Source: a virus. From it: a stretch of DNA of 64,000 bases. Location of the stretch: the IMG/VR virus record IMGVR_UViG_3300045988_080644, one strand, 5' to 3'. Made by a program: the position numbers and the translations under genes. The notes under the pieces were generated by a model, which saw only the letters and a program-made list of their open reading frames with translations, was not told the origin of the DNA and did not search any database. This document shows, piece after piece, positions 5,957-47,265 of this stretch (within the stretch, counting starts at the first letter, position 1; each line of letters begins with the position of its first letter).

Positions 5957-7090
5957 TTATAATATAAATGAAAGATTTGAATTATTATCTATTTCTTTTG
6001 GCTCATCTATATTATTAAGTTCAACATTTAATTGCTGAACACCATCTTCTAATAAATAATTAGGACTAGTATATTTCTCCCAGTCAAATATATTCTCAGG
6101 TTTAGGTAAATCTGCATAATGACTACAATCACCATAAAAACCAGTAGGAATCATTAAGTCAGAAGAACCAAATCTACTCTTTAAGATAAATACACCAATA
6201 AAACACTGCTCCAGTATCTTGATATTATATTTCTTATAAGTAGATAATTTATATTTATGTGGACTAAATAAACCTATAGCTACTTGTGAATCCTCAAGTA
6301 ATGATCCACTGTCTTTATAGTCTTCCATAGATGGGTCTTGTAGACCTTGTTTCATTCTCTCTTGACCATTAGCATTTCTATTAAACTGAGAAATCATTAT
6401 AGGAGATACAATTTTAGTATTATTTCTGATTTGAACAGAATCTCTAGAAATTGCATCAATTTCATCTTTCTTAGTTCGACCACCACTTGCCTTTACCAAG
6501 GTCATATGGTCAATCATAATACCAAGGAACATGTTAGGATTATTTGGAATGTATTTGCCATTCTCAAATTTACCCCATTTCAATAATTCCTCATTTACTT
6601 CCTTTAAATAGACTGCCTCTGTAAGACTACCCTCATAAAAAGATAATCTTTCATCAAGAATTCTAATAAAGTCAGTACTCTTAGTTAGGAGTTCATATTC
6701 TTCATCAGATAATACACAGTCCTTTCCTCTAGAGAATATCTGCTTAAATCGCAGTTCAACTCCATAATTGTCAAATATGTACATACTAACTAATTTAGCA
6801 TATACTTGACTACGAGTCATCTCTAGTGAGAATAATAACCATCTAGGGTCTCTTTCTGGACTATCCCCATTTAAATAATGCATTAATGGTTGATATACAT
6901 AAGTCCAGAGCGCCCAGGTAGATTTACCACTGCCTGAAGCACCTCCTATTAAATAAGAGGTACCTGGAAGAACTCCATCAGTATATAAATCTAACTTAGG
7001 TGAACCTGTACTAAGTCCTATATTGTGTCCTTCTCTTCCTTCTTTAACTAATTGAAAGAACTCCTCTAAACCACTAATTTTCTCTGCCAT
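5957..7090 (-). CDS. DnaB-like replicative helicase
   Basis: Walker A GGASGSGKST, Walker B IMIDHM, RecA-type C-terminal domain layout. Confidence 0.7.
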   Translation of the reverse strand: MAEKISGLEEFFQLVKEGREGHNIGLSTGSPKLDLYTDGVLPGTSYLIGGASGSGKSTWALWTYVYQPLMHYLNGDSPERDPRWLLFSLEMTRSQVYAKLVSMYIFDNYGVELRFKQIFSRGKDCVLSDEEYELLTKSTDFIRILDERLSFYEGSLTEAVYLKEVNEELLKWGKFENGKYIPNNPNMFLGIMIDHMTLVKASGGRTKKDEIDAISRDSVQIRNNTKIVSPIMISQFNRNANGQERMKQGLQDPSMEDYKDSGSLLEDSQVAIGLFSPHKYKLSTYKKYNIKILEQCFIGVFILKSRFGSSDLMIPTGFYGDCSHYADLPKPENIFDWEKYTSPNYLLEDGVQQLNVELNNIDEPKEIDNNSNLSFIL

Positions 7091-7794: not shown

Positions 7795-7980
7795 CTATTC
7801 AGCAGTTTCTTCAGCCACTGGATTCATTTCGAAGTCAGGTTCAAAAACAACCTCATGTGCATATTCCAAATCCTCTATTTTCTTTTGCAATTTTGAAATT
7901 TGCTTCTTCAAGGACTTATTTTCACGTAAAAGAGCACTCTTCATTGAATTGTACTCTTTCTTTGTATAATACATTTCCAT
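7795..7980 (-). CDS. hypothetical coiled-coil protein
   Basis: ORF 7795..8058 trimmed to the internal ATG at 7980 to avoid a 68-nt overlap with the helicase gene. Confidence 0.45.
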   Translation of the reverse strand: MEMYYTKKEYNSMKSALLRENKSLKKQISKLQKKIEDLEYAHEVVFEPDFEMNPVAEETAE

Positions 7981-7990
7981 TTCTAATGTC

Positions 7991-9274
7991 TTAAAACCTA
8001 AATGTAAAATTCTTAATCTTTCTTTTATAAAGCTCGTATGGTTCGCCTTTAAGAACATGCATTAAATTTTCTACATCAATAATTTCAATCTGAGAATCCT
8101 TTTTAGCATTTTGCATCCATTTAGTTTCTACAGTATCATTAATTACTAATGTAAAAAATTCAGCACCTAGTTTACCCTTTGCTAATCGTACTACTCTTCC
8201 AAGAGACTGTACAGCTTTAGTTTTACTACTATCTATGCCAGTTTGTATACCTACTGATAAATCAGGTACATTTAAGCCTTCAATTGCCATCTTACAGCTA
8301 TTTAATACTCCGCTTGGCATTTTAGAAAACTCTTCTAGTGTTATTCTATTCTTCTTTTTACCTTCTTTACCAGTATAAACATATCCCTCTTTATAAGCTT
8401 CAGCCATAGCGGTATTAGCATTAAAAGTAACAATCTTCTTATCACTTCTATACTTAATTATCTCTTTAGCTATTCTTATTTTTTCAGGATGATTTTGTAC
8501 AAACTTCTTTCTAGACTGCATAGTTTTCATAAAACCCATAGCATGAAATGTGACAGATTTTAAATAGTCCTTTTGCATAGCATAATCATCAGGATAGGTA
8601 TCCTTACAATATTGCCATCTATTAGTAAAACCATTTTTACCTGTCATAGACATAACCTTGTTGAAGTCCCATTGAAAGAATTCAAAGTGTTCATTAAATT
8701 CTTTATTATATTTCTGATAAACATCAATATCAGGAACATCAATGACAACTACATAGTCTTTATATTTAGCTACCCACCCATTAAAGAGGGCATCTTCCAT
8801 AGTTATAGTGTCTACAACTGGAGCATATTTAGCTAAAATTTCATGTCTTCCATCCAGTCTTTCAAAAGTAGCAGTTAAACCAAGTATCAATTTAAACTTA
8901 GTATTTGTAAGAACATTACTAAGAACTTCACTATTGATTTTATGGGCTTCATCAATAATTAGTAAATCACAAGACCATTCCTTTTTAGATGCTCCCATCA
9001 TTACTCTTACATCAGTATTAAATCCTAAACCTCTCTCATCAAGTTCTTTAGACCATTGTTCTCTTAAATTATCAAAAGGTACTACTACTAGTACTGACAT
9101 TGCAGGATATTTTGATCGTAATTTAGTTATTGCATTTAAAGCCACTCTAGTCTTACCAAATCCAGTGCATCCTACAATAGTCCCGTGTCCTTTAGCTTTA
9201 ATCCAAGCTTTAAGTGCTTGAGCCTGCCTTTCATCCCGAGAAACAGGCTCAAATAAATCGTGCATTACTGGCAC
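7991..9274 (-). CDS. SF2 (DEAD/DEAH-box) helicase
   Basis: Motif I GCTGFGKT, motif II LLIIDEAH, motif III GLTAT, motif VI QSLGRVVR. Confidence 0.85.
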   Translation of the reverse strand: MPVMHDLFEPVSRDERQAQALKAWIKAKGHGTIVGCTGFGKTRVALNAITKLRSKYPAMSVLVVVPFDNLREQWSKELDERGLGFNTDVRVMMGASKKEWSCDLLIIDEAHKINSEVLSNVLTNTKFKLILGLTATFERLDGRHEILAKYAPVVDTITMEDALFNGWVAKYKDYVVVIDVPDIDVYQKYNKEFNEHFEFFQWDFNKVMSMTGKNGFTNRWQYCKDTYPDDYAMQKDYLKSVTFHAMGFMKTMQSRKKFVQNHPEKIRIAKEIIKYRSDKKIVTFNANTAMAEAYKEGYVYTGKEGKKKNRITLEEFSKMPSGVLNSCKMAIEGLNVPDLSVGIQTGIDSSKTKAVQSLGRVVRLAKGKLGAEFFTLVINDTVETKWMQNAKKDSQIEIIDVENLMHVLKGEPYELYKRKIKNFTFRF

Positions 9275-11806: not shown

Positions 11807-12081
11807 TTACTATTAATTAGTGTATAACCCTCTTTAATTAAGTAGGATTCTGGAGCAAATTCCAGAGTTAGAAATCTAATAAAATACTCATCTGCTTTTT
11901 TCTTCCTATTTATGAAGTCTTTCTTTTTAAGTTTTAAAGGTTTATTAGTACTATATTGTTTTTCCTCAAATAAAGAAACTCCACCTTTAAATACTTTATA
12001 GATAGAATCTTCATAAATAAAAGAACTATGTGTTTGAACTATTTGACCGTCCTTCTCGTAAATCGCTACTGAAGTTGTCAT
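11803..12081 (-). CDS. hypothetical protein
   Basis: ORF track; 4-nt overlap with the downstream gene. Confidence 0.55.
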   Translation of the reverse strand: MTTSVAIYEKDGQIVQTHSSFIYEDSIYKVFKGGVSLFEEKQYSTNKPLKLKKKDFINRKKKADEYFIRFLTLEFAPESYLIKEGYTLINSK

Positions 12082-12535
12082 ATATTAAATTAATTATATA
12101 CTTAATAAACTTATTTTTAGCAATTTCGTAAAAAGAGTTCCAAACATTATTGGTATAGAAGTTGTATATATCTTGTGAAGTAATATTATTATAATGAAAA
12201 TATTCTTCCTCACTATATGTACCTACATTTATCCTATACGTATCTTTAATAGGTTTAGCCTCCAGACATATATGATATACTGAATCATCTAAATCTTCAA
12301 AATCATCAGGATAACCATCATCTTCATAACGAGGTTCTGAAACTAATACTTCAAATGGAATATCTTCTCTTTCAAGTATTTCTGCTATTACATAGGCTAC
12401 ATAACAACAACCACCATAGTTTGTATGATATATTGTATTTAAACAATCACACAAACTATTTATTTTATTAAATAGGTCCGAATAATTATCTTCCGACTTC
12501 TTTATAGATCTCCTCTTGAATTTGCTTGAAAACAT
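12026..12535 (-). CDS. hypothetical protein
   Basis: ORF track. Confidence 0.55.
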   Translation of the reverse strand: MFSSKFKRRSIKKSEDNYSDLFNKINSLCDCLNTIYHTNYGGCCYVAYVIAEILEREDIPFEVLVSEPRYEDDGYPDDFEDLDDSVYHICLEAKPIKDTYRINVGTYSEEEYFHYNNITSQDIYNFYTNNVWNSFYEIAKNKFIKYIINLIYDNFSSDLREGRSNSSNT

Positions 12536-13065: not shown

Positions 13066-13596
13066 TTAGGAAGGTTGCTAAATGATGATTCTTTCTGAAT
13101 TTTCTTCATATAATGGAAAAATTTTTAAACGTTCTCTATCTGCAATTATTTTAGCTTCTTCTAAAGTATCATAGTATCCAAAAGAAATACCTTTAATTCG
13201 TACTCTGTATTTACCATTTTCAATAGTAACATTTCTTATTCCAGTTTTGCTTTTATCAACGGAGGTATTAGTAGCATTATCTTTCTTAGATAACTCCCTT
13301 AAATTACTTTTTCTGTTATCTAGAGTATTATGATTAATATGATCAATTACATTATTTTCATCCGTTTTAGACATAATCATATTATGCATCCAATATTGTT
13401 TTCTAACACCTTCTTTTTGTATCTTAGTACGAACCCCGTCTACATGCCCTTTACGATTATTTGTAATGTGCCATGTTCCTTTTATGCTAGATACTTTTTG
13501 GAAGTCTTCCTTATCTACATAACATTCTAATTGATTATCCTTATAATTTATGTAGATTATATAATAATCCTATTCTTCTTTATATTTATTTTTCAT
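13066..13596 (-). CDS. free-standing HNH homing endonuclease with AP2-type DNA-binding domain (TAG-recoded)
   Basis: IDHINHNTLDNRKSNL (HNH) followed by GIRNV..GKYRVRI (AP2-like). Checked codon by codon: the frame stays open from ATG 13596 through an in-frame TAG at 13570-13572. The annotated TAG stop at 13078 reads on 4 codons to TAA at 13066. Confidence 0.7.
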
Positions 13597-14872: not shown

Positions 14873-15292
14873 CTAATCTGCAAAATGACTAGCTTCCACA
14901 GCCAATCTATCTGCTAGATTATTATATTCATCTATGTTATGTCCCTTTGTCCATTCAAATTTTATATCTGAACAAAACTCTTTAGCTTTATTATGTACTT
15001 TATCAAATAGCTGCCAATAATTCTGGTTCTTCTTGCGTTTCCATCCCTTATTTATACATCCTAAAACGTATTGTGAATCAGATACTACAGTAATGGAATC
15101 AAAGTTTGTACTAATGGCATGCAGAGCATAAATAACAGCCATTATTTCCATTTTATTATTAGTTACATTTTTGAAGTGTTTATTAAATTGATAAATTACT
15201 TCGTTATCTTTAATAAATACAACTCCAACACCTCCATTACCTGTAGACACTTGACAAGCTCCATCTGTATATATGGTTAATAATTTCCCCAT
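14873..15292 (-). CDS. rnhA: ribonuclease H (RNase HI)
   Basis: DEDD catalytic pattern: IYTDGAC, NNKMEIMAV, VSDSQYV, KGH...NNLADRLA. Confidence 0.9.
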   Translation of the reverse strand: MGKLLTIYTDGACQVSTGNGGVGVVFIKDNEVIYQFNKHFKNVTNNKMEIMAVIYALHAISTNFDSITVVSDSQYVLGCINKGWKRKKNQNYWQLFDKVHNKAKEFCSDIKFEWTKGHNIDEYNNLADRLAVEASHFAD

Positions 15293-17596: not shown

Positions 17597-17904
17597 CCAA
17601 AATTACCTCCTAATGGTGTTTCTGGTTCTAAATTATCTATAAGAACTTCTTGTAATTTAAAAGACTTTCCTTCAACTTCTACATTATTGTATACAAAGTT
17701 ATAAAGATAGTCAATGGACATAAATCTAGTTGGAGTAGTAATACAATGATCATGTTGAGTATCTTTTTGATACTTTTCAACATGTTTAGTTATATTACCA
17801 CCTTTATATAATCTATAAACTATAGTTCCTTCCCATTCATTTATAGGAGAGATACCTGTGATGTATAAATCACTATTATTTAAATGTACCTGTTGTATTA
17901 TCAC
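17593..17904 (-). CDS. hypothetical protein
   Basis: ORF track; 4-nt overlap. Confidence 0.6.
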   Translation of the reverse strand: MIIQQVHLNNSDLYITGISPINEWEGTIVYRLYKGGNITKHVEKYQKDTQHDHCITTPTRFMSIDYLYNFVYNNVEVEGKSFKLQEVLIDNLEPETPLGGNFG

Positions 17905-18587
17905 TATAATTGTATTTTTTGAATTTCATTGGATTCCAAACTTTTTATATAATTATATACTTTACTAAGATTTCCTCCACTAAATGGAGTTTTATTACTA
18001 AAGATTAATATCTTATATAGATTTATAGCCTGTATAAAACTTACCTTATTCTCTTTTAAATATTTAGTAAATATAGTGCTAAATCCACAAGATTGCTTAA
18101 AATATTGCATGATTGCTTGTTTAAGACACTTTATTTCTGAATTTGACCAGTACTCTTCTTTCTTTTTAAATATCTTATTTGTTGCAGAATCCCTTATAGG
18201 TCTTGGTATATATAAAGTTTCTGGTAAAATTAATTCATCCTTCTTGACAGCATCAGTAAATTTTATAGCCGAAGTATTTAACAATTCGTTAACTTGTGCA
18301 TAGTGTATTATAAAGTCTATAGTATTAGAAGCATTAATTATCATAATCTTAGCACTTCCTTTTATAAATACAGCATAGTTAATGGAATCAAATACAGAAG
18401 ACTTAATTATTTGTAAATCCCCAGTACTCTGCTTTGCCATATGGTCTGAATATCTAATCTCTAAGTTTTTATAATAGAAATATAAAGAATTACTATTCTG
18501 CCCATTGTCTTTTAATGTACAATTAACCCATAGCCATTTTTCAAGTTTATTCATTTCCTTTAATCTGTTAAGTATTAATCTATACAA
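17904..18587 (-). CDS. hypothetical protein
   Basis: ORF track; the annotated start is non-ATG (TTG), and the first ATG is at 18553. Confidence 0.55.
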   Translation of the reverse strand: MYRLILNRLKEMNKLEKWLWVNCTLKDNGQNSNSLYFYYKNLEIRYSDHMAKQSTGDLQIIKSSVFDSINYAVFIKGSAKIMIINASNTIDFIIHYAQVNELLNTSAIKFTDAVKKDELILPETLYIPRPIRDSATNKIFKKKEEYWSNSEIKCLKQAIMQYFKQSCGFSTIFTKYLKENKVSFIQAINLYKILIFSNKTPFSGGNLSKVYNYIKSLESNEIQKIQL

Positions 18588-18618: not shown

Positions 18619-18691
18619 TATACTATAAGTAGGTTGACTTTGTAATAGGATCTTATTCTCTACCATTACTAGTTCTCTACTTTATTATTAG

Positions 18692-18775
18692 TTGTCTAGG
18701 AGAGATTTGAACTCCCGAAGCTAAATAGCAGCTGATTTACAGTCAGCCGTGTTTGACCACTTCACATACTAGACA
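18692..18775 (-). tRNA. tRNA-Tyr(GUA), class II
   Basis: Acceptor TGTCTAG/CTAGACA, anticodon arm GCTGA-CTGTAAA-TCAGC, long variable arm, T-loop TTCAAAT. Confidence 0.85.
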
Positions 18776-18793
18776 ATAAATTCTTTTTATGAG

Positions 18794-18873
18794 TTGCAGA
18801 GGCAGGATTCGAACCACTTTGTGCGACCTCTTGGTTATGAGCCAAGCGAGATGACCAACTTCTCCACTCTGCG
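18794..18873 (-). tRNA. tRNA(CAU), initiator-like, aberrant T stem
   Basis: Anticodon arm CTTGG-CTCATAA-CCAAG; C1/A72 mismatch at the top of the acceptor stem; the T stem GCA[CAAAGT]GG/CCTGC needs a 6-nt bulge. Confidence 0.5.
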
Positions 18874-18884
18874 ATATTAAAAAG

Positions 18885-18956
18885 AGCTTCAAGTAGGATT
18901 CGAACCTACGACCTGCTCATTACAAGTGAGCTGCACTACCACTGTGCTATTGAAGC
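18885..18956 (-). tRNA. tRNA-Thr(UGU)
   Basis: Canonical cloverleaf; anticodon arm GCTCA-CTTGTAA-TGAGC; T arm GTAGG-TTCGAAT-CCTAC. Confidence 0.9.
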
Positions 18957-19101
18957 TAGAATAAAGGCGAATATGGCATTAGACGGGCAAACTATCGTGA
19001 CCATATTCTAATAATACATTGAGCTATCAGGCATACTCGTGGATTGCCACCGCTACCTCTAACAACCACCCAGTTAAACGCTAGGTGCTCTCCATTATTT
19101 G

Positions 19102-19175
19102 TAGGTGATATAGGACTTGAACCTATGACCTCTTGCTTATCAGGCAAGCTATCTAACCAACTGATATAATCACCT
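19102..19175 (-). tRNA. tRNA-Ile(GAU)
   Basis: Acceptor AGGTGAT/ATCACCT; anticodon arm CTTGC-CTGATAA-GCAAG. Confidence 0.9.
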
Positions 19176-19242
19176 AAATTGTTGGACCACTAAGGTTAGA
19201 ATTCTGTAGTGTTTCCGGTTACACCATAGTACAATTTGTTTG

Positions 19243-19319
19243 CGGAATATAAGGGACTCGAACCCTTAGTTTTACTAGAGTGACAGTCTAGTTCCCTTAC
19301 CAACAGGGCTTAATACTCC
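19243..19319 (-). tRNA. tRNA-Asp(GUC)
   Basis: Anticodon arm CTAGA-CTGTCAC-TCTAG; T arm AAGGG-TTCGAGT-CCCTT. Confidence 0.85.
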
Positions 19320-19610
19320 GGGCGCCTCTTGTGTACACATTTCTTTTCGAGAAGGTGATGAACCTTAGAAATAAGAGGCATATATTTAAATTTACTCTCC
19401 CAACATCAGTAAGTACCCCTTTGGCACTTACTAGTAGAAATCTAATTAAATAACTGTAAATGGTAATACTCGATAGTCTTTAACATCGTACCAAGCTGCT
19501 ACAGTTTTCATTCCTTTCCACCATGATTTGATAATTCTTTTCATACAGTTTAAAATTTAATTGTTAATTAAATAATCTAATTGTATAGAAGGAAGAAGAA
19601 GTAAACATCG

Positions 19611-19688
19611 TGCGAGATGTGGGAATCAAACCCACGCAAGCCTTCTGGTTGGAAGCCAGATATGCGCCTTCAGCTACACTAATCTCGC
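19611..19688 (-). tRNA. tRNA-Gly(UCC)
   Basis: Acceptor GCGAGAT/ATCTCGC; anticodon arm TCTGG-CTTCCAA-CCAGA; unusually long (8-nt) variable region. Confidence 0.75.
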
Positions 19689-19699
19689 ATATTTATTAG

Positions 19700-19774
19700 T
19701 GGACCACGGTGGGACTCGAACCCACGACATCTACCTTGCAAAAGTAGCGTTCTAGCCAGCTGAACTACGAGCCC
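19700..19774 (-). tRNA. tRNA-Ala(UGC)
   Basis: Anticodon arm CTACT-TTTGCAA-GGTAG; G3-U70 wobble and A73 present; the acceptor stem needs one bulged nucleotide. Confidence 0.75.
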
Positions 19775-20620: not shown

Positions 20621-21718
20621 TTACAATTCCTTAATATTGGAATCTTCAGACTTTCCTAGATATATCTCATTTATAGTACAATTACTTGTGCGAAATTGTT
20701 CTATAAAACGTATTTTACCAATAATCCTTGGAGACTTATCTTGATAATCACATATAGTAGGAATATATGCAGTCTTTAAACAATCCCAATGAGTTATGAC
20801 AATGTTAAATTTACAATGATAAGTTTCACGGTAATTATCTAAACAATGTCTTTCAATAGCTCTTTCGAATAAAGTATAGTCAAAAGGACCCGTCTTAAAC
20901 TCTCCTTGTGGTCCATCATTAGTATTTGATGGTTCTTCTAGAGTAAAATATGTATCCAAGTCCATAGAATAAGGATTGTACCCATTTCCATGTCTAGTTA
21001 AATATGGACGCATAACTAAGTATACCTCTGCATTTTCTAGACACTTTTCTTGGATTCCATTTAATCCTACTTTGCTAGGAGTACAATGAGGCATAAATCC
21101 TCTTTCCATATCTAGAAGGAGACCTTGAGAACCCTCCCAAATAACAGTATCAACCTCATCAGGATAATAAGTTCCAATTATAAAGGTCTCTGGGTGTTCT
21201 TTAATAAAGGTACAAGCCTCTTTAAAAAGATCATCTAATTCAGTGTCTCGTTCTAGATTGTGATAATCCCTTATAGTTTGTAGAATTACATCTGTATATT
21301 CATTTATATAAGGGCACATACGAGCACTATAAGTTACATTATCTTTGTTTCTTTTAAAACAAGCATGTATTCCTTTACCACAAGTTCCATTATACTTTAC
21401 TCGTCCATCCATAGAATCAGCTAATACATCATAAGGTGTAATAACTCTACAGTTAGGATTTATATATAACTTAGGAACTTCAATACCTTCATTAACTAAG
21501 ACCTTATACTCATTATAGATACATATCGGGTCAATGAATACTTCTTTATATAGACAAGTTGGTACTCCTAGTAAAACACCACTTCCCCAAGAAGAACATA
21601 CGTGTGATTTACCTTTATAAACCACACGATGCCCAGCTTGTGGACCTCCACTAAATCTAATGACAACAGGTTTATGGCTATTCATACATAACCATTGTAC
21701 TACATTACCTTTACCCTC
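20621..21718 (-). CDS. adenylosuccinate-synthetase-family (PurA/PurZ-like) enzyme, exon 2
   Basis: EGKGNVVQWL...RFSGGPQAGH, GTCGKGIHACF, WEGSQGLLLDMERG and LTRHGNGY align with the PurA motifs GDEGKGK, GGHNAGH, GTTGRGIGPAY, FEGAQGTLLD and STRVGAGP. The frame is open 33 nt upstream of the annotated ATG, back to a TAA. Confidence 0.75.
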   Translation of the reverse strand, partial: EGKGNVVQWLCMNSHKPVVIRFSGGPQAGHRVVYKGKSHVCSSWGSGVLLGVPTCLYKEVFIDPICIYNEYKVLVNEGIEVPKLYINPNCRVITPYDVLADSMDGRVKYNGTCGKGIHACFKRNKDNVTYSARMCPYINEYTDVILQTIRDYHNLERDTELDDLFKEACTFIKEHPETFIIGTYYPDEVDTVIWEGSQGLLLDMERGFMPHCTPSKVGLNGIQEKCLENAEVYLVMRPYLTRHGNGYNPYSMDLDTYFTLEEPSNTNDGPQGEFKTGPFDYTLFERAIERHCLDNYRETYHCKFNIVITHWDCLKTAYIPTICDYQDKSPRIIGKIRFIEQFRTSNCTINEIYLGKSEDSNIKEL

Positions 21719-22975
21719 CCAATTGTTAGCTTATAGGCTTTTTATCCTATAATTCTGGAGATTACTCTCATACTCTTTCGAGATACGTCTGTCAATTCAG
21801 ACCAGTGCGGCGTACATTTTCACCATATTACTAAAAGTAACTTAGGGCAGGACACTCTTGGGTCTATTATATTTATTCAAGACCTACGCTCTACAATACC
21901 AATTAGCCTTACGCAATCTAATTAGTTATCACGGTATTATCTAGGAATTATAGACTTCACCGTTTTTGCCCTGTAATAATAGTTACAGTTTCCCATAACT
22001 ACGACGAAATTCTAAATATCTATTATATTTTCTATCTAAGTACATTGTTGAATTTTTATATAAATAATCTATGCATTGATATGCTACATTGTTAGTTAAA
22101 AGAATCTAATAAGTTTTACCATTATTATGTTTAGCATATAAAGTTTTTTCACCACAAGGTAGATATCTCATCATCCCTTGCAAGAAATCTTTAGTTCCAA
22201 TTACATTAAACTCAGCATATTTATGTTCTTTATCTGAATAAGTGACACATCCATCACCATCAAAGTATCCTCTAAGAAAATGACGAATTAATTCTTCTTT
22301 ACTATATCGATCAGAACTTATAAATATGTCTTCGTTAGGAAATTGTAGTATTAAAGACTTTTGAGGAACACATCCCTTTGAAATTAGATTTTGATAAATA
22401 TTTCTATTATCAAACTTCATTCTACAAGTTATATAATTATCTTTTTCTTGAGTTCTAATTTCACTAGAATAATGTAATAAATCACAGAATTTTTGCATAT
22501 GGCTAATATCTGCATATTGCAAATTCATTGCAAATGTTGGTCTATCTTTAGCTACATACCCATCAGCAAATATGAAACCTAACCAATAAGCCTTTTCTTC
22601 AGTATCTATTACATCAAAGAAATGTTCATTAAGATCCCACATTCCTCTTTTATCTACTACAGATGCACCCATTAATGATAAATTCTTTTTAATGGTTTTT
22701 TCTGTAACATTATATTTAATTGCTAACTCTTCTATGGTTTTACCAGAATTATATAAGGATAAAGCTTCATCTTTATTATAAGTCTATCTAATTTCTTTAA
22801 GAGTTACTCCTTTATATACTAAATATTTTTTTACACTATCTTTACTAACTTTATTATCTTTACATATCTGGGAAATTGATAATCCCTAATCTACATACAT
22901 AGACACTATATTTAAAGTGTCAAACTTTTCAATAGTACTTTTTCTTATCATATAATATTATTTAAAAATTAATTC
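21719..22975 (-). mobile_element. putative group I intron carrying a LAGLIDADG homing endonuclease ORF
   Basis: Separates the PurA-like P-loop halves (..IVLGSLFGD | EGKGN..). The 5' exon ends in U and the intron ends in G. The GC-richer 3' part contains GNRA-capped and long-range helices. P1/IGS pairing was not identified. Confidence 0.55.
21983..22951 (-). CDS. LAGLIDADG homing endonuclease with N-terminal HTH (TAG-recoded)
   Basis: Two LAGLIDADG motifs (WLGFIFADGYV, FLRGYFDGDGCV). Checked codon by codon: 322 codons open from ATG 22951 to TAA 21983, with 3 in-frame TAG (22886, 22784, 22106) and no TAA or TGA. Confidence 0.8.
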
Positions 22976-35969: not shown

Positions 35970-36266
35970 CTATAATTTTTTTAATATTTTTACATTTTTA
36001 ATTAATGGTTCGCCATCAGTACCAGTTTCATCTAACAAATCACCAGTTACTAGATATTTATTGCCAGTAAAGTATTTTACATTATATATAAAATCATTAA
36101 ATGCCATCTCATTTGTTGGAAATGGAAGAACGGGAGAGTATGTTCCATTTATATTTTTATGAGCTTCATAAACTGAAACTCCAGGTTCTTCTCCAACTTT
36201 TTCGTTGCATTTCCAAATACATGATTTCTCATTTTTAGGTATTTCACCAAATCTATAGAATATCAT
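35970..36266 (-). CDS. hypothetical protein
   Basis: ORF track. Confidence 0.55.
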   Translation of the reverse strand: MIFYRFGEIPKNEKSCIWKCNEKVGEEPGVSVYEAHKNINGTYSPVLPFPTNEMAFNDFIYNVKYFTGNKYLVTGDLLDETGTDGEPLIKNVKILKKL

Positions 36267-42140: not shown

Positions 42141-42569
42141 CTACTCTTCAGAATTACCTATTCTTACGTACTTACCAGTATAAATTATATTAGAAGAAAC
42201 TATTTCTCCTCCACCATTCTCGTAATATTCAGAACCTTTAGGTATAATAAATGTCGCAATAGAATAAATATTATTTAATCTAATATCTTCTGCAATCTTA
42301 CCTAAATAAATTGTTCTATAATATGAGCGCAAATCAGAGTAAGGCATAGCTATATCTTTATAAGAATGATACCCTTCATAAATTACATAAGAGGATTCAT
42401 CTTTAAAGAATTGAATAGGATTTAGTTCAACTTTTTTATTTATTTCTTTTGGTTCATAAATAAAGTTTTGATACAAACTCTTAAAACCTTTATCAGATGC
42501 ACGACCTATTTTATAAACATAAAAATCTCGTTTAGCTATTTTTACATCGCACCTACCTACCCAACACAT
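42141..42569 (-). CDS. MCW-family paralog 3
   Basis: MCW start; VYKIGR; EGYHSY; ATFIIPKGSEYYENGGGEIVSSNIIYTGKY. Confidence 0.65.
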   Translation of the reverse strand: MCWVGRCDVKIAKRDFYVYKIGRASDKGFKSLYQNFIYEPKEINKKVELNPIQFFKDESSYVIYEGYHSYKDIAMPYSDLRSYYRTIYLGKIAEDIRLNNIYSIATFIIPKGSEYYENGGGEIVSSNIIYTGKYVRIGNSEE

Positions 42570-43038: not shown

Positions 43039-43230
43039 TTAAAATCCTGCTTCTGTAGAATCTAAAGACCAAACTTCAGGAAATACTGTGAGACCATTAA
43101 ATGAATGACACTCTACTTCTATGCTGTTAGTAATTCTATCTATATTAAGAATTCTAAACCACATAGGTTTCTGACATCCTTTCCACGCTTGGGAAAAGAT
43201 GTCATTTACCTGTAACACTACTTTGTCCAT
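43039..43230 (-). CDS. hypothetical protein
   Basis: ORF track. Confidence 0.5.
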   Translation of the reverse strand: MDKVVLQVNDIFSQAWKGCQKPMWFRILNIDRITNSIEVECHSFNGLTVFPEVWSLDSTEAGF

Positions 43231-43511
43231 TCTGAATCAATATTAAGAAGTCTGAACACACCCCTAACAGTATACATAAGATGCTCATCAGGTTTCATAT
43301 TTTTCCATATCTGATAAGCTAGTTCAGCATATTCTTTCTTTTCAAATCTGAAAGTGCCGAACATTCTCTTATCAGAGCTGACATAGTAACCATGCTCATC
43401 CTTACTAATAGTGTACTCAGGCTTCTTATCAAGCTTTACACGTAATGCATTATACATTACATTTTGCTCTCCTGGACTTAGTGAATCAATAATTTTATTT
43501 ATATCCTTCAT
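43218..43511 (-). CDS. hypothetical protein
   Basis: ORF track. Confidence 0.55.
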   Translation of the reverse strand: MKDINKIIDSLSPGEQNVMYNALRVKLDKKPEYTISKDEHGYYVSSDKRMFGTFRFEKKEYAELAYQIWKNMKPDEHLMYTVRGVFRLLNIDSEWTK

Positions 43512-44323: not shown

Positions 44324-44533
44324 GAAAATGTGCCTGAGGGTCGTTAATCCTCTCCTTTCTTAGTCAAGAGAACGTTGCAACTTGCCACTAAGACACACTG
44401 TTTTTGAGTTTTTGTAAGTCCTCCGACTTATTAAAGTTTTCGCATAATTTTGATAAGAATTCTACTTTCACAAGCAAAACTCTTTGAGCCTTATTCAATA
44501 ATTTAAAAATTATATAAAATTTAGGATAGAAAG

Positions 44534-44605
44534 GAAATGCGGACAGATTCGAACTGCCGACCTTCTACTCTACGGTAGATGCTCTAACCACTAAGCTACA
44601 CATTT
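44534..44605 (-). tRNA. tRNA-like gene with a 6-nt anticodon loop (identity undetermined)
   Basis: Canonical acceptor (AAATGTG/CGCATTT), D arm, 5-nt variable region and T arm (GGCAG-TTCGAAT-CTGTC), but the anticodon stem TCTAC/GTAGA encloses only CGTAGA. Confidence 0.5.
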
Positions 44606-44756: not shown

Positions 44757-45362
44757 TTAATTCATAAAGGAGTGCTCTTTACATAATTTATATACAAAAG
44801 GCTTTCCTTTGTGTTTTTGATAATCACACATTATACATTTGGGGTTAGTACAATGCCTTGCCCCATAAAATCCATGACCAAATTCGTGTACTATTACAGC
44901 AACTAAATCATGTGTTCTATAATCACTAACTATAGATTTATTACTATTTAAAGGAGTTAATCCCATTATTCCATAGTTAGTTTGACCATGTATTTTGTAT
45001 GATATATCCTTATGAGTTAAACCTATTACATAGGATTGCTCCTTGTTAATATTAAGGTCTTTTAACAACTCATTAGCTAAGTACCTATTCCGAGGCTTAT
45101 AATAAGCTTTTTTGGGTAAGTCCTTATTAGCTAATACTTTTACATTAGTCCAATCACCTCCGTATACCTTACTTAATCCCCTTGTGATTTTAGAGGCTAG
45201 CTTTGTAGCTTCCTGTTGTGTAAAATCATCATAAGGTTGTAAATAAATATAAGCAATTGGATCTGCAGGAAAACTATCACAATCTGTAATATTTCCCTTT
45301 ATAACATTATTAGAACAAGATGTAACTAATAATATTATTAATAATCTAAATAATAGTTTCAT
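44757..45362 (-). CDS. archaemetzincin-like zinc metalloprotease lipoprotein
   Basis: Lipobox LLVTSC; HEFGHGFYGARHCTNPKCIMC...LCKEH matches the HExxHxxGxxHC...C.M...C..C pattern. Confidence 0.7.
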   Translation of the reverse strand: MKLLFRLLIILLVTSCSNNVIKGNITDCDSFPADPIAYIYLQPYDDFTQQEATKLASKITRGLSKVYGGDWTNVKVLANKDLPKKAYYKPRNRYLANELLKDLNINKEQSYVIGLTHKDISYKIHGQTNYGIMGLTPLNSNKSIVSDYRTHDLVAVIVHEFGHGFYGARHCTNPKCIMCDYQKHKGKPFVYKLCKEHSFMN

Positions 45363-45369
45363 AATCTAA

Positions 45370-46431
45370 TTAATATCCTTTATTATAATTTAAATTTAAA
45401 TCATATTTATTTGCATAATGTTTTCCCTAAACTCTTTGAGGAGCATTTCCATAATGTACTTTTAATGGATGTCCTTCTTCTCCAGATTCATATATATAAT
45501 TACCCTATCTAACAGGCAAAGAATATATAGAATCTCCTACTGCGTTATTGTTTATCATATAGTTAAGTGCATCTGTAGGTAAATTAACACAACCATAAGA
45601 TTTATTTCTAATTCCATTTTTAAAATCAGTCTATCTACTCTTAGGCATAATATGAAATAAAACGGAAGTTTTCTACTTAGTGTTTGTATTATCTCTACTT
45701 CCCTCATTCCATCTAAATGCTGGATGTCCTTCATAACTAGAAGAAGATAAAGTAAAAATACCAGCAGGTGTTACCTAGGCTTGTTTACTTCCATTATAAA
45801 AGTTTTTATCTTTCTAGTATATTGGATCAGTTTTATAATTATTCCAAAAATTATATCCATCCTAGTCATTAGATAAACCTGTCATAACATCAAATTGTGC
45901 TAAGGCTTTGTTTCCTTGCATGTGTTTTAATTGATGATTATTTCTATCTAGTATCCAATAAGGTTCAGTAACACCACTATGTATTTTATGGTCTATAATA
46001 GCCTATTCATTCTTGTTAGTAGATAATGGATAAGGTTTTGGCTCAAACTTATTAATCCAATTAGTTAAACTAGTAAACATATCGGTATCTTTGTTAGTCT
46101 ACTAATTCTTTTTTAACTAATAATCATGCCATGCCTATTTACTTTTTACACCCCAATCTCCATCTACTGCAATATTATAACCAGCTTTAACTAGTTCCTA
46201 CTGCTATTGACGAACTTTGTTAGGGTCATACATAGCACCATATTTAGCTCTTAATCTAGCATCATAATTATTTTGCTGTTTTCTTCTAGTCTAGAGCTAT
46301 TTAGAACCCTATGTAGCTCTCTGATTCATCTATTTTACCTTTTTTAATCCAGAATTAGTAAAATCCTTCATTTTCTATCTTTGTACTCCAATAATGTTTC
46401 CAAGATAACTATTTTCAAAATTTCCTGTCAT
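45370..46431 (-). CDS. peptidoglycan-binding plus YkuD (L,D-transpeptidase-fold) protein, TAG-recoded
   Basis: Checked codon by codon: 353 sense codons from ATG 46431 to TAA 45370, with 19 in-frame TAG and no TAA or TGA. PG_binding_1-like LVKAGYNIAVDGDWGVKSK(TAG)AWHDY(TAG); YkuD catalytic FHIMP...SYGCVNLP. Confidence 0.85.
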
Positions 46432-46627
46432 AAATATTAATATTTAAGTTATTATTTTTAATTGATTAATCACTTATTTATTATATGTCTATGGCATAGA
46501 AATTACCAATAAATTAAAACTCATACTACTTTCGCAAGCAGTATGAGTTAATGTGTAAGTCATTTTATTGACTTATCAACTCAACTACAAGAAATTCATC
46601 AATTTTCACAAATTAATAATTAATATG

Positions 46628-46678
46628 TCGCTTAGACGGGATTCGAACCCGTAAGACCATTCCTGGTCAAGGGATTTT
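46628..46678 (-). tRNA. tRNA-Leu(UAA), 3' exon
   Basis: AAAA-TCCCT (rest of the anticodon loop plus 3' stem), long variable arm TGACCAGGAATGGTC, T arm ACGGG-TTCGAAT-CCCGT, acceptor CTAAGCG, A73. Confidence 0.75.
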
Positions 46679-47265
46679 CTTACTACACTTGCTTTTATAC
46701 AAGCTAACTTAAATAAAGGGATTCGAACCCTTAATCCTCAAGAGATATTTAATGACGACTTTAGAGGAGATTCCGTCAATCTGCTGCCGTATACCAATTC
46801 CGCCATATTTAAGTTATTGTAGTCTGGACTATTTTATTACCTTATCAATTAACTTCGAAGTAAGGAATTAGGTTTTACCTCTCTCAATGAGCGTCTCCTT
46901 TTTTACATAATGCATTACTATTATAACCTTATTACTAAGGATGAAGTCTAAACCATTCCTTTTAATTAACTTAGGTATCTCCTCTATAGTCTCTACACAT
47001 TTATGCTGTAACACTCCAATTTACATTTAAGATAGATTAGCGTTCTATCACAATTTAGCTCGTCACCACCAAAACCTATGTCACCATAAGTGAGGCTTCT
47101 GTCGCAAGTTAATTAGATTTCTGAATACTGCTTCTATAATCATTACTCTGCTTCTTACACAGATGCTAACCTTTTTACAATTAGTAATTAACTTGTTTAA
47201 TTAGGGAGATTCTACTTCTATTATTTCTAATAGAGCACTCAAATTCACCATTACTGGTGTTCCAA
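46679..47265 (-). mobile_element. putative group I intron in the tRNA-Leu(UAA) anticodon loop
   Basis: Inserted between U34 and A35. The 5' exon ends in U and the intron ends in G. A candidate IGS GAGT lies about 30 nt in and pairs with exon ACTT. Multiple helices and no ORF. Confidence 0.6.
46708..46812 (-). ncRNA. tRNA-like element nested in the tRNA-Leu intron
   Basis: 7-bp acceptor TTAAATA/TATTTAA, Leu-type D region TGGCGGAATTGGTATAC, perfect T arm AAGGG-TTCGAAT-CCCTT, but no canonical anticodon arm; 105 nt. Confidence 0.45.

Follow-up and report, generated by a model that had tools for sequence, protein, structure and literature searches.

The question raised by positions 45370-46431 of the 64,000-nucleotide stretch analysed here (the window; IMG/VR virus record IMGVR_UViG_3300045988_080644) is whether an interval of the minus strand that looks empty under the standard code encodes a protein once TAG is read as an amino acid and, if so, what that protein might do. 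The source is an uncultivated gut phage of 31% G+C, whose tRNAs resemble those of Prevotella (Lak) phages. We consider it probable that this phage reassigns TAG to glutamine (Gln) in a gene-specific manner, that the interval encodes a likely lytic enzyme of the YkuD fold, and that the synthesis of this enzyme is gated by a suppressor tRNA.

The minus-strand frame runs from an ATG at 46431 through 353 sense-read codons to a TAA at 45372-45370 (354 codons with the stop), and its in-frame stops comprise 19 TAG, with zero TAA and zero TGA, exactly as described in a first-pass annotation made from the letters alone; the two peptides which that annotation had quoted as domain signatures (LVKAGYNIAVDGDWGVKSK-TAG-AWHDY-TAG and FHIMP...SYGCVNLP) are both found in the translation as quoted. 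Its observation of an empty track of open reading frames (ORFs) likewise holds, in that under code 11 there is no ORF of at least 80 amino acids across 45370-46431, and the region 45363-46707 is the largest non-coding gap of the window. The other five frames across the interval contain 16-61 stops each, of mixed types, and at the strand-wide TAA plus TGA rate of 0.063 per codon the chance of a 353-codon run without either is ~1e-10. Under a codon-usage log-odds score trained on the 67 long standard-code ORFs of the window, the recoded frame attains 0.38 as against 0.31 ± 0.10 in the training ORFs, and the other five frames score negative.

The frame is also widely conserved. The protein database holds full-length 353-amino-acid orthologues (92-99% identity) from gut phage contigs of 140-192 kb, along with more remote relatives at identities down to 34%, and a single 90%-identity cluster of orthologues comprises 412 members, i.e., hundreds of near-identical full-length copies in public metagenomes; a scan of IMG/VR for the recoded gene gave only three close loci. 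Pairwise ratios of non-synonymous to synonymous substitution rates (dN/dS) among seven orthologous genes range from 0.08 to 0.39, and TAG itself is conserved across all six close relatives in 16 of the 25 TAG columns. These observations bear on the possibility, foreseen in the first-pass annotation, that the interval is a decaying, untranslated pseudogene, as its invisibility to standard-code ORF finding might suggest. The frame is retained in related phages with dN/dS far below 1, and the stops of the other frames are mixed rather than TAG-specific; the long, conserved, intact copies, the dN/dS values and a codon usage above the mean of the window genes exclude decay, and the lack of any TAA or TGA over 353 codons, the invariance of the catalytic His and Cys, the hundreds of metagenomic copies and the presence of a matching suppressor tRNA in the window further reduce the probability of a pseudogene to almost nothing. 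Thus, 45370-46431(-) is a real gene under purifying selection. Re-calling the genes of the window under code 15 instead of code 11, as had been recommended, raises the coding density from 74.9% to 81.3% and fills the two largest code-11 gaps.

What, then, do the TAG codons specify? In an alignment of 13 orthologues, every TAG was masked as X, such that Gln could not be favoured. Gln emerged as the commonest residue facing TAG, occupying 16% of the cells relative to a background of 3.6% (4.4-fold) and occurring in 29 of the 60 TAG columns; its codons there are CAA in 49 cases and CAG in 19, and the excess of CAA indicates that the match to Gln does not merely reflect the one-step mutational neighbour of TAG. 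Among the close relatives, CAA or CAG is the sole alternative to TAG in eight of the nine variable TAG columns. In one orthologue (P0021, from locus L006) TAG is absent internally and serves as the stop codon, implying that at least that part of the L006 genome uses the standard code, and this orthologue shows Q at three of the eight aligned TAG positions of the window gene. The first-pass annotation had reasoned from the FQ that closes PG_binding_1 repeats; TAG105 does meet the Q of the FQ motif in a profile alignment to the structure 4xxt, although that alignment taken by itself is not significant (E=0.26). The second line of evidence comes from a tRNA encoded in the window:

60021-60094, plus strand: suppressor tRNA with anticodon CUA (ARAGORN; Rfam tRNA, 63.3 bits at 60022-60093)

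The closest matches of this tRNA(CUA) in deposited phages carry a tRNA-Gln annotation: it shares 84% identity with the CTA-anticodon 'tRNA-Gln' of the crAss-like phage cr7_1, and its D-arm and anticodon stem are nearly base-for-base those of the tRNA-Gln(TTG) of Acinetobacter phage AM24. Judged from these sequence matches, its body is of the tRNA-Gln type. Given these two independent lines, namely the orthologue codons and the Gln-type suppressor, TAG is Gln in 45370-46431(-), in accord with the first-pass proposal.

Decoding as something other than Gln, e.g., tyrosine by a supF-like tRNA or pyrrolysine, has a very low probability. It could draw on the ARAGORN label of the CUA tRNA ('Pyl'), on the best pairwise score of the suppressor among the window tRNAs being with tRNA-Tyr, and on a few alignment columns that pair TAG with TAT; however, Tyr is depleted opposite TAG (3.5% versus a background of 6.6%), the reverse of the enrichment seen for Gln, and the variable loop of the suppressor is short, whereas the window's own 85-nt tRNA-Tyr has a long one. 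tRNA-Pyl is not known to have an ordinary GG-containing D-loop or a TTCGAAT T-loop. The suppressor possesses both, and with such ordinary loops and a short variable loop the 'Pyl' label merely names the anticodon. Its body matches a bona fide phage tRNA-Gln(TTG) in addition to the crAss-like CTA 'tRNA-Gln', and metaproteomics is described as having confirmed TAG-to-Gln decoding in crAss-like phages (PMC9523058).

The suppressor lies in a small plus-strand block that is divergent from the long minus-strand gene array. About 0.7 kb upstream on the same strand, the ORF at 58483-59331(+) matches endonuclease VII/HNH families and also the PHROGs 'Srd anti-sigma factor' and 'decoy of host sigma70'. 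Pfam and PHROG scans that took in all but one of the window ORFs of at least 220 amino acids recovered no release factor or aminoacyl-tRNA synthetase.

The recoding is confined to few genes, as the first-pass annotation had held: only three substantial ORFs in 64 kb combine internal TAG with coding-like codon usage (19, 17 and 3 TAG, respectively). Apart from the gene under study, the ORFs with internal TAG are:

61419-62141, minus strand: second heavily recoded gene, 240 codons with 17 TAG (codon-usage score 0.32)
21983-22951, minus strand: LAGLIDADG homing endonuclease gene with three in-frame TAG (HTH_7, LAGLIDADG_3)
61088-61297, minus strand: 69-codon membrane-protein ORF with a hydrophobic segment and a TAG at codon 3, just downstream of the 17-TAG gene

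The genes for helicases, ATPases, an exonuclease, a PurA/PurZ-like enzyme, TerD and Band-7 proteins are TAG-free and open under the standard code, and the replication, nucleotide-metabolism and small early-type ORFs mostly lack TAG and are readable in the standard code of the host. The accompanying first-pass statement that every stop inspected by eye was TAA or TGA was mistaken, in that about ten plausible minus-strand ORFs end in TAG:

7795-8058, minus strand: ORF ending in TAG
12026-12535, minus strand: ORF ending in TAG
13078-13389, minus strand: ORF ending in TAG
14873-15292, minus strand: ORF ending in TAG
17904-18587, minus strand: ORF ending in TAG
35970-36266, minus strand: ORF ending in TAG
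42141-42569, minus strand: ORF ending in TAG
43218-43511, minus strand: ORF ending in TAG
51388-51786, minus strand: ORF ending in TAG
57519-58028, minus strand: ORF ending in TAG

Hence TAG is a sense codon in some genes and a stop in others. Each of the TAG-terminated ORFs has an in-frame back-up TAA or TGA 1-19 codons further on (mean ~6), and with an active suppressor their products would be lengthened by a short C-terminal stretch. We also considered whether the +4 base separates sense from terminal TAG and rejected this: a purine follows 31 of the 39 sense TAGs as against a 66% baseline at codon first positions (p=0.045), and T follows eight of the ten terminal TAGs as against a 52% baseline after TAA/TGA stops (p=0.17), i.e., relative to proper baselines the differences are marginal or not significant.

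Within the recoded YkuD gene, TAG makes up 19 of the 30 Gln-type codons (63%), and with TAG counted the apparent Gln share reaches 8.5%, compared to 3.0% in the other window genes; at some of the TAG positions of the window gene, moreover, TAG-poor orthologues carry E, D, K, R or M. At the orthologous locus 10-24 TAGs are found in L002, L004, L005, L008 and L015 (e.g., 18 in L002, 10 in L005 and 12 in L015), with the number across all orthologues ranging from 0 to 24, and the ORFs within 6-10 kb of the recoded gene in these relatives mostly have zero TAG, save for a 294-amino-acid ORF just upstream in L005 with eight. One could explain the enrichment with no regulatory role at all: in the presence of a suppressor, CAG-to-TAG changes would be near-neutral and drift upward in some genes, a view in keeping with the single transition between the two codons, the TAG/CAG/CAA polymorphism among close relatives and the wide variation in TAG number. 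We hold this to be improbable. Under drift TAG should spread over many genes, not just three substantial ORFs; the same locus is TAG-rich in lineages that are 44-59% identical and even in an allele with a different catalytic domain; TAG replaces non-Gln residues, nearly tripling the apparent Gln content; and CAA is commoner than CAG as its counterpart. The TAG share, the TAGs at non-Gln positions and the raised Gln content together point to selection for TAG rather than drift, and the enrichment is gene-specific and evolutionarily maintained.

The 240-amino-acid product of 61419-62141 is a deletion variant of a 379-amino-acid protein common in the relatives, the window copy lacking the 139 amino acids between two (Y/H)QQGG repeats. 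A motif of ~65 amino acids at its N-terminus (GIHIKKENRGKFT...KRAIFAQNAKKWKH) recurs, 70-89% identical and in varying positions, in thousands of proteins of 70-1500 amino acids, and its modules occur inside proteins of 1000-1500 amino acids with phage lysozyme domains. Pfam, PHROGs, a PDB profile search and an hhalign comparison to a Glucosaminidase-containing relative gave no functional assignment for this protein, and a glucosaminidase identity was rejected as unsupported. The adjacent membrane-protein ORF matches phrog_1322 'membrane protein' (E=4e-4) and no Pfam family, and is holin-like in size only. The homing endonuclease matches the endonuclease phrog_4645 (2.5e-56 over amino acids 25-314), with all three TAGs spanned by the match, and is located among TAG-free replication and nucleotide-metabolism genes.

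What kind of protein does the 353-codon gene encode? Three regions can be delineated in its product:

46237-46431, minus strand: N-terminal module, ~amino acids 1-65, with MTGNFENSYLGNIIGVQRQK... followed by a long helix (alignment; helix predicted at 9-64 with low confidence)
46096-46236, minus strand: PG_binding_1-like three-helix region, ~amino acids 66-112 (Pfam matches of orthologues; structural match to 4xxt)
45526-45957, minus strand: YkuD (L,D-transpeptidase-fold) catalytic domain, amino acids 159-302 (Pfam PF03734, Foldseek)

Five of the 19 TAGs fall in the N-terminal module, the first of them being codon 19. The first-pass annotation had predicted two domains, peptidoglycan-binding and YkuD, to be recovered by profile searches, and the second was recovered outright: the recoded translation matches YkuD (PF03734) with 26.8 bits (gathering threshold 23.4; E=8.5e-6) over profile positions 4-144 of 146, irrespective of whether TAG is written as Q or X. 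PG_binding_1 (PF01471) gave no Pfam match in the window protein at E≤1; among the orthologues, it is matched by P0022 with 24.3 bits (cut-off 23) and at sub-threshold scores by P0033, P0043 and P0026, and amino acids 28-109 of the window protein have weak matches to PHROG endolysin families (E ~4e-4). We accordingly place the PG_binding_1 assignment at the level of the family and of structure only.

The catalytic His260 (45652-45654) and Cys281 (45589-45591, in the motif SYGCVN) can be located in the YkuD domain, and H260, S278, G280 and C281 are invariant across 15 orthologues (an H...S-x-G-C motif). The canonical L,D-transpeptidase motif is G-C-[IV]-R, with an Arg after the catalytic Cys, and in the profile alignment 4xxt shows this Arg as SHGCIRL; the corresponding motif here is SYGCVNL, with Asn283 in place of the Arg, and N283 is retained in at least 90% of the orthologues. 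Sequence searches of the PDB, both single-sequence and profile, gave nothing significant (the best being 4xxt at E=0.26), and the fold therefore had to come from structure prediction. We used an AlphaFold model of the database protein P0001, which is 99% identical to the window protein; its mean predicted local distance difference test score (pLDDT) is 74, with 75-95 in the C-terminal domain. Foldseek comparison of this model with the PDB gave 48 matches at E≤1e-3, and among the matches listed all have the L,D-transpeptidase fold, including LdtMt1/2, Ldtfm, Csd6, Bd1075 and the fusions of PG-binding and YkuD domains 4xxt, 4lpq and 5bmq; the top match, 4xxt, is a structure containing PG_binding_1. 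The C-terminal half of the protein is thus a YkuD fold with its catalytic residues. No signal peptide or membrane segment was detected in the window protein.

In its fold, His...Ser-x-Gly-Cys arrangement and 21-residue His-Cys spacing, the domain resembles the L,D-transpeptidase-fold enzymes at large, and like 4xxt, 4lpq and 5bmq it would have a PG-binding domain N-terminal to YkuD. It differs from the characterised members in being only 13-18% identical to them, in the Asn after the Cys in lieu of Arg, in being phage-encoded and in having no signal peptide. The hydrolytic members of this fold, Csd6 of H. pylori and Bd1075 of Bdellovibrio, are L,D-carboxypeptidases. Modular endolysins of the KZ144/EL188 type, from phages of Gram-negative hosts, have an N-terminal PG_binding_1 and a C-terminal catalytic domain. 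The window protein shares with these the order of a (predicted) wall-binding region before a catalytic domain, and also domain swapping between related phages, but it has a YkuD fold rather than a transglycosylase, an extra N-terminal module of ~65 amino acids and a lytic activity that is predicted only.

The organization of the locus supplies the contextual evidence for function, and the following elements flank the recoded gene:

44757-45362, minus strand: partner lipoprotein gene, 201 amino acids with zero TAG, starting 8 nt downstream of the YkuD stop
46549-46518, minus strand: terminator-like hairpin just upstream of the recoded gene (consensus match)
46509-46480, minus strand: sigma-70-like promoter match, downstream of the hairpin and just upstream of the recoded gene (consensus match)

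The partner is predicted to be exported on account of a lipoprotein signal (...LLVTSC), and it has a metzincin-like HExxHxxxxxxH motif (HEFGHGFYGARH) and a Cys cluster; its match to Peptidase_M10 (E=6e-4) is below the cut-off. The pair of YkuD and lipoprotein genes is kept in L002, L005, L006, L007 and L008, including relatives as remote as 44-59% identity. The N-terminal module of the recoded protein is common to proteins of 374-381 amino acids that have a different C-terminal domain and occur at the same locus in related phages. Thus, L015, a relative of ~184 kb with the same neighbours, including an upstream LytTR-domain gene, has a 374-amino-acid allele with 12 TAG and an unrelated C-terminal domain, followed by a separate TAG-free YkuD_2 gene. 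Phage lysins typically exchange their catalytic domains in this way while the N-terminal module stays constant. As to the upstream signals, promoter matches in the window are no more frequent than in shuffled sequence, and Bacteroidota promoters fall outside the consensus used in the scan. Between the LytTR gene and the recoded gene, 46708-46812(-) harbours a tRNA-like element (Rfam tRNA, 33.1 bits; threshold 29) with good acceptor and T arms and a 33-nt insertion in the anticodon region; ARAGORN makes no call there, and the element could not be matched to the tRNA-Leu of relatives.

Borges et al. proposed a model of suppressor-gated recoding for gut phages (10.1101/2021.08.26.457843), and by analogy we propose the following for the recoded gene. 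Before the tRNA(CUA) is made and charged with Gln, ribosomes would stop at codon 19, and with 19 successive TAGs any leaky full-length synthesis should be negligible. As the suppressor accumulates, presumably late in infection, the full 353-amino-acid enzyme would be made; its target would be the stem peptides in the peptidoglycan of the host, and its most likely activity that of a lytic L,D-carboxy- or endopeptidase, i.e., an endolysin or a virion-associated lysin. We infer a lysin, with hydrolytic rather than cross-linking activity, from the absence of a signal peptide, the domain swapping at the locus, the weak PHROG endolysin matches, the occurrence of YkuD in phage lytic proteins, where it is a rare but listed domain (PMC8310338), and the preference of gut phages for recoding their lysis genes (10.1101/2021.08.26.457843).

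Several points weigh against such a late, lytic enzyme. YkuD-fold enzymes are usually synthetic, i.e., cross-linking, and the substitution of Asn for the Arg of GC[IV]R means that the chemistry may differ from that of characterised enzymes. The Foldseek TM-scores are low (~0.25 on query length), as the model is multi-domain with a disordered N-terminus, and to this is added the missing Pfam match to PG_binding_1. Neither a holin nor a spanin is adjacent to 45370-46431, the genes around it are of early type, and the 64-kb window contains no structural genes, so that 'late' rests on analogy.

Taking these points further, the gene could be a real recoded one that encodes a true L,D-transpeptidase, remodelling host peptidoglycan late in infection, e.g., for wall stiffening, superinfection exclusion or D-amino-acid exchange, or else an entry enzyme carried on the virion. 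We consider this possible, though clearly less likely than not being so. It accords with the Pfam family and with the structural neighbours (among the matches listed, L,D-transpeptidase-fold proteins, most of them synthetic), with the lack of an adjacent holin or spanin, with the nature of the conserved partner, an exported metalloprotease-like lipoprotein rather than a known lysis protein, and with the fact that very long proteins bearing tail-lysozyme domains contain modules of the second heavily recoded gene. What tilts the balance towards a lysin is that the catalytic domain is swapped for an unrelated one at the same locus behind the same N-terminal module; that with no signal peptide the wall could be reached only via membrane permeabilisation or virion delivery; that the fold relatives include hydrolases, namely the carboxypeptidases Csd6 and Bd1075; and that the Arg of GC[IV]R is absent.

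Going beyond the lytic reading, one may speculate that the amber count at this locus is a selected, tunable translational timer, that the enzyme is a lytic YkuD-fold peptidase, and that with the metalloprotease-lipoprotein it forms an undescribed lysis pair of Bacteroidota phages. This combined scenario is doubtful, a little more so than the transpeptidase alternative above; relevant to it are the series of 0, 3, 10-13, 18 and up to 24 TAGs carried by the same locus, including the allele with the other catalytic domain, the addition of TAGs where no Gln stood before and the TAG-free state of most flanking genes. If true, it would offer a lysis pair for Bacteroidota phages without recognisable holin or spanin neighbours.

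The window shares several features with code-15 gut phages (crAss-like, Lak and Sapphire/Agate-type): a tRNA(CUA) encoded by the phage, replication genes devoid of TAG next to TAG-rich genes, a cell-wall enzyme among the most heavily recoded genes, and recoded modules dispersed in a large genome with standard-code close relatives. In crAss-like phages a lysozyme-type amidase and a spanin belong to the small number of families in which TAG is favoured over CAA/CAG, Agate phages have a recoded (TGA) intron endonuclease inside an early gene, and scattered recoded modules are known in the large Jade, Sapphire, Agate and Lak genomes (10.1101/2021.08.26.457843). The recoded homing endonuclease in the early region of the window parallels that of the Agate phages, with TAG in place of TGA, and in size, code and sparse recoding the phage resembles the Sapphire clade (~200 kb, TAG, few recoded genes), a likeness by description only. 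Unlike the recoded lysozyme-type amidase of crAss-like phages, the enzyme of the window has a YkuD fold, and in contrast to the code-15 phages it stands alone among TAG-free genes with no recognisable lysis cassette, in a lineage without a close match among deposited phage genomes. The gene is a further case of a preferentially recoded cell-wall enzyme in a code-15 gut phage.

What makes the case valuable is that the enzyme is of an unusual type, that recoding contrasts sharply between genes and that the orthologues form a graded series; it is a clean, well-controlled instance of gene-by-gene stop-codon reassignment in gut phages, and the 0-24 TAG series amounts to a natural experiment on a possible timing of lysis by amber codons. 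The case also draws attention to a YkuD-fold enzyme with a probable role in lysis or wall modification, from a lineage that is not represented among deposited phage genomes. As standard-code annotation misses the gene entirely, gut phage pipelines need code-aware gene calling. As regards that lineage, a tblastn search of 50,697 GenBank phage records with the recoded protein gave no match, and megablast of 37 kb of the window against deposited phages gave only tRNA matches and one unannotated partial scaffold; on these comparisons the lineage appears to have no close relative among deposited phage genomes.

The window contains two tRNA arrays (18691-19774 and 48467-49430) of seven tRNAs each, several of which share 85-96% identity with tRNAs from Prevotella Lak megaphages, a similarity suggestive of a common host range within the Bacteroidota or of tRNA exchange. 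An extra tRNA inside the second array (48700-48771(-); Rfam, 35.7 bits) is absent from the ARAGORN output, and an Rfam scan of the gap at 49431-50434 found no family. The tRNA at 44533-44605(-) (Rfam, 52 bits) has a 6-nt anticodon loop, CGTAGA, for which ARAGORN gives a two-base 'anticodon'; its counterpart in L004 (11812-11885) combines a normal anticodon loop (GTA) with a short variable arm, unusual for a bacterial-type tRNA-Tyr. In L001 (MT835539.1), a partial relative with 85% identity across part of the tRNA region, an 85-nt tRNA at 6356-6440 with anticodon TTA is a potential TAA suppressor. The adenylosuccinate-synthetase-like gene at 20621-21685(-) (Pfam, 4.9e-26) has as its best PHROG the PurZ family phrog_1211 (2e-33), a hint at a possible substitution of 2-aminoadenine for adenine in this phage. 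Finally, two RAGATH-1 hammerhead ribozymes (53971-54055(-), 81.3 bits, and 54949-55054(-), 69.7 bits; Rfam gathering threshold 56.3) lie ~0.9 kb apart in an ORF-poor region.

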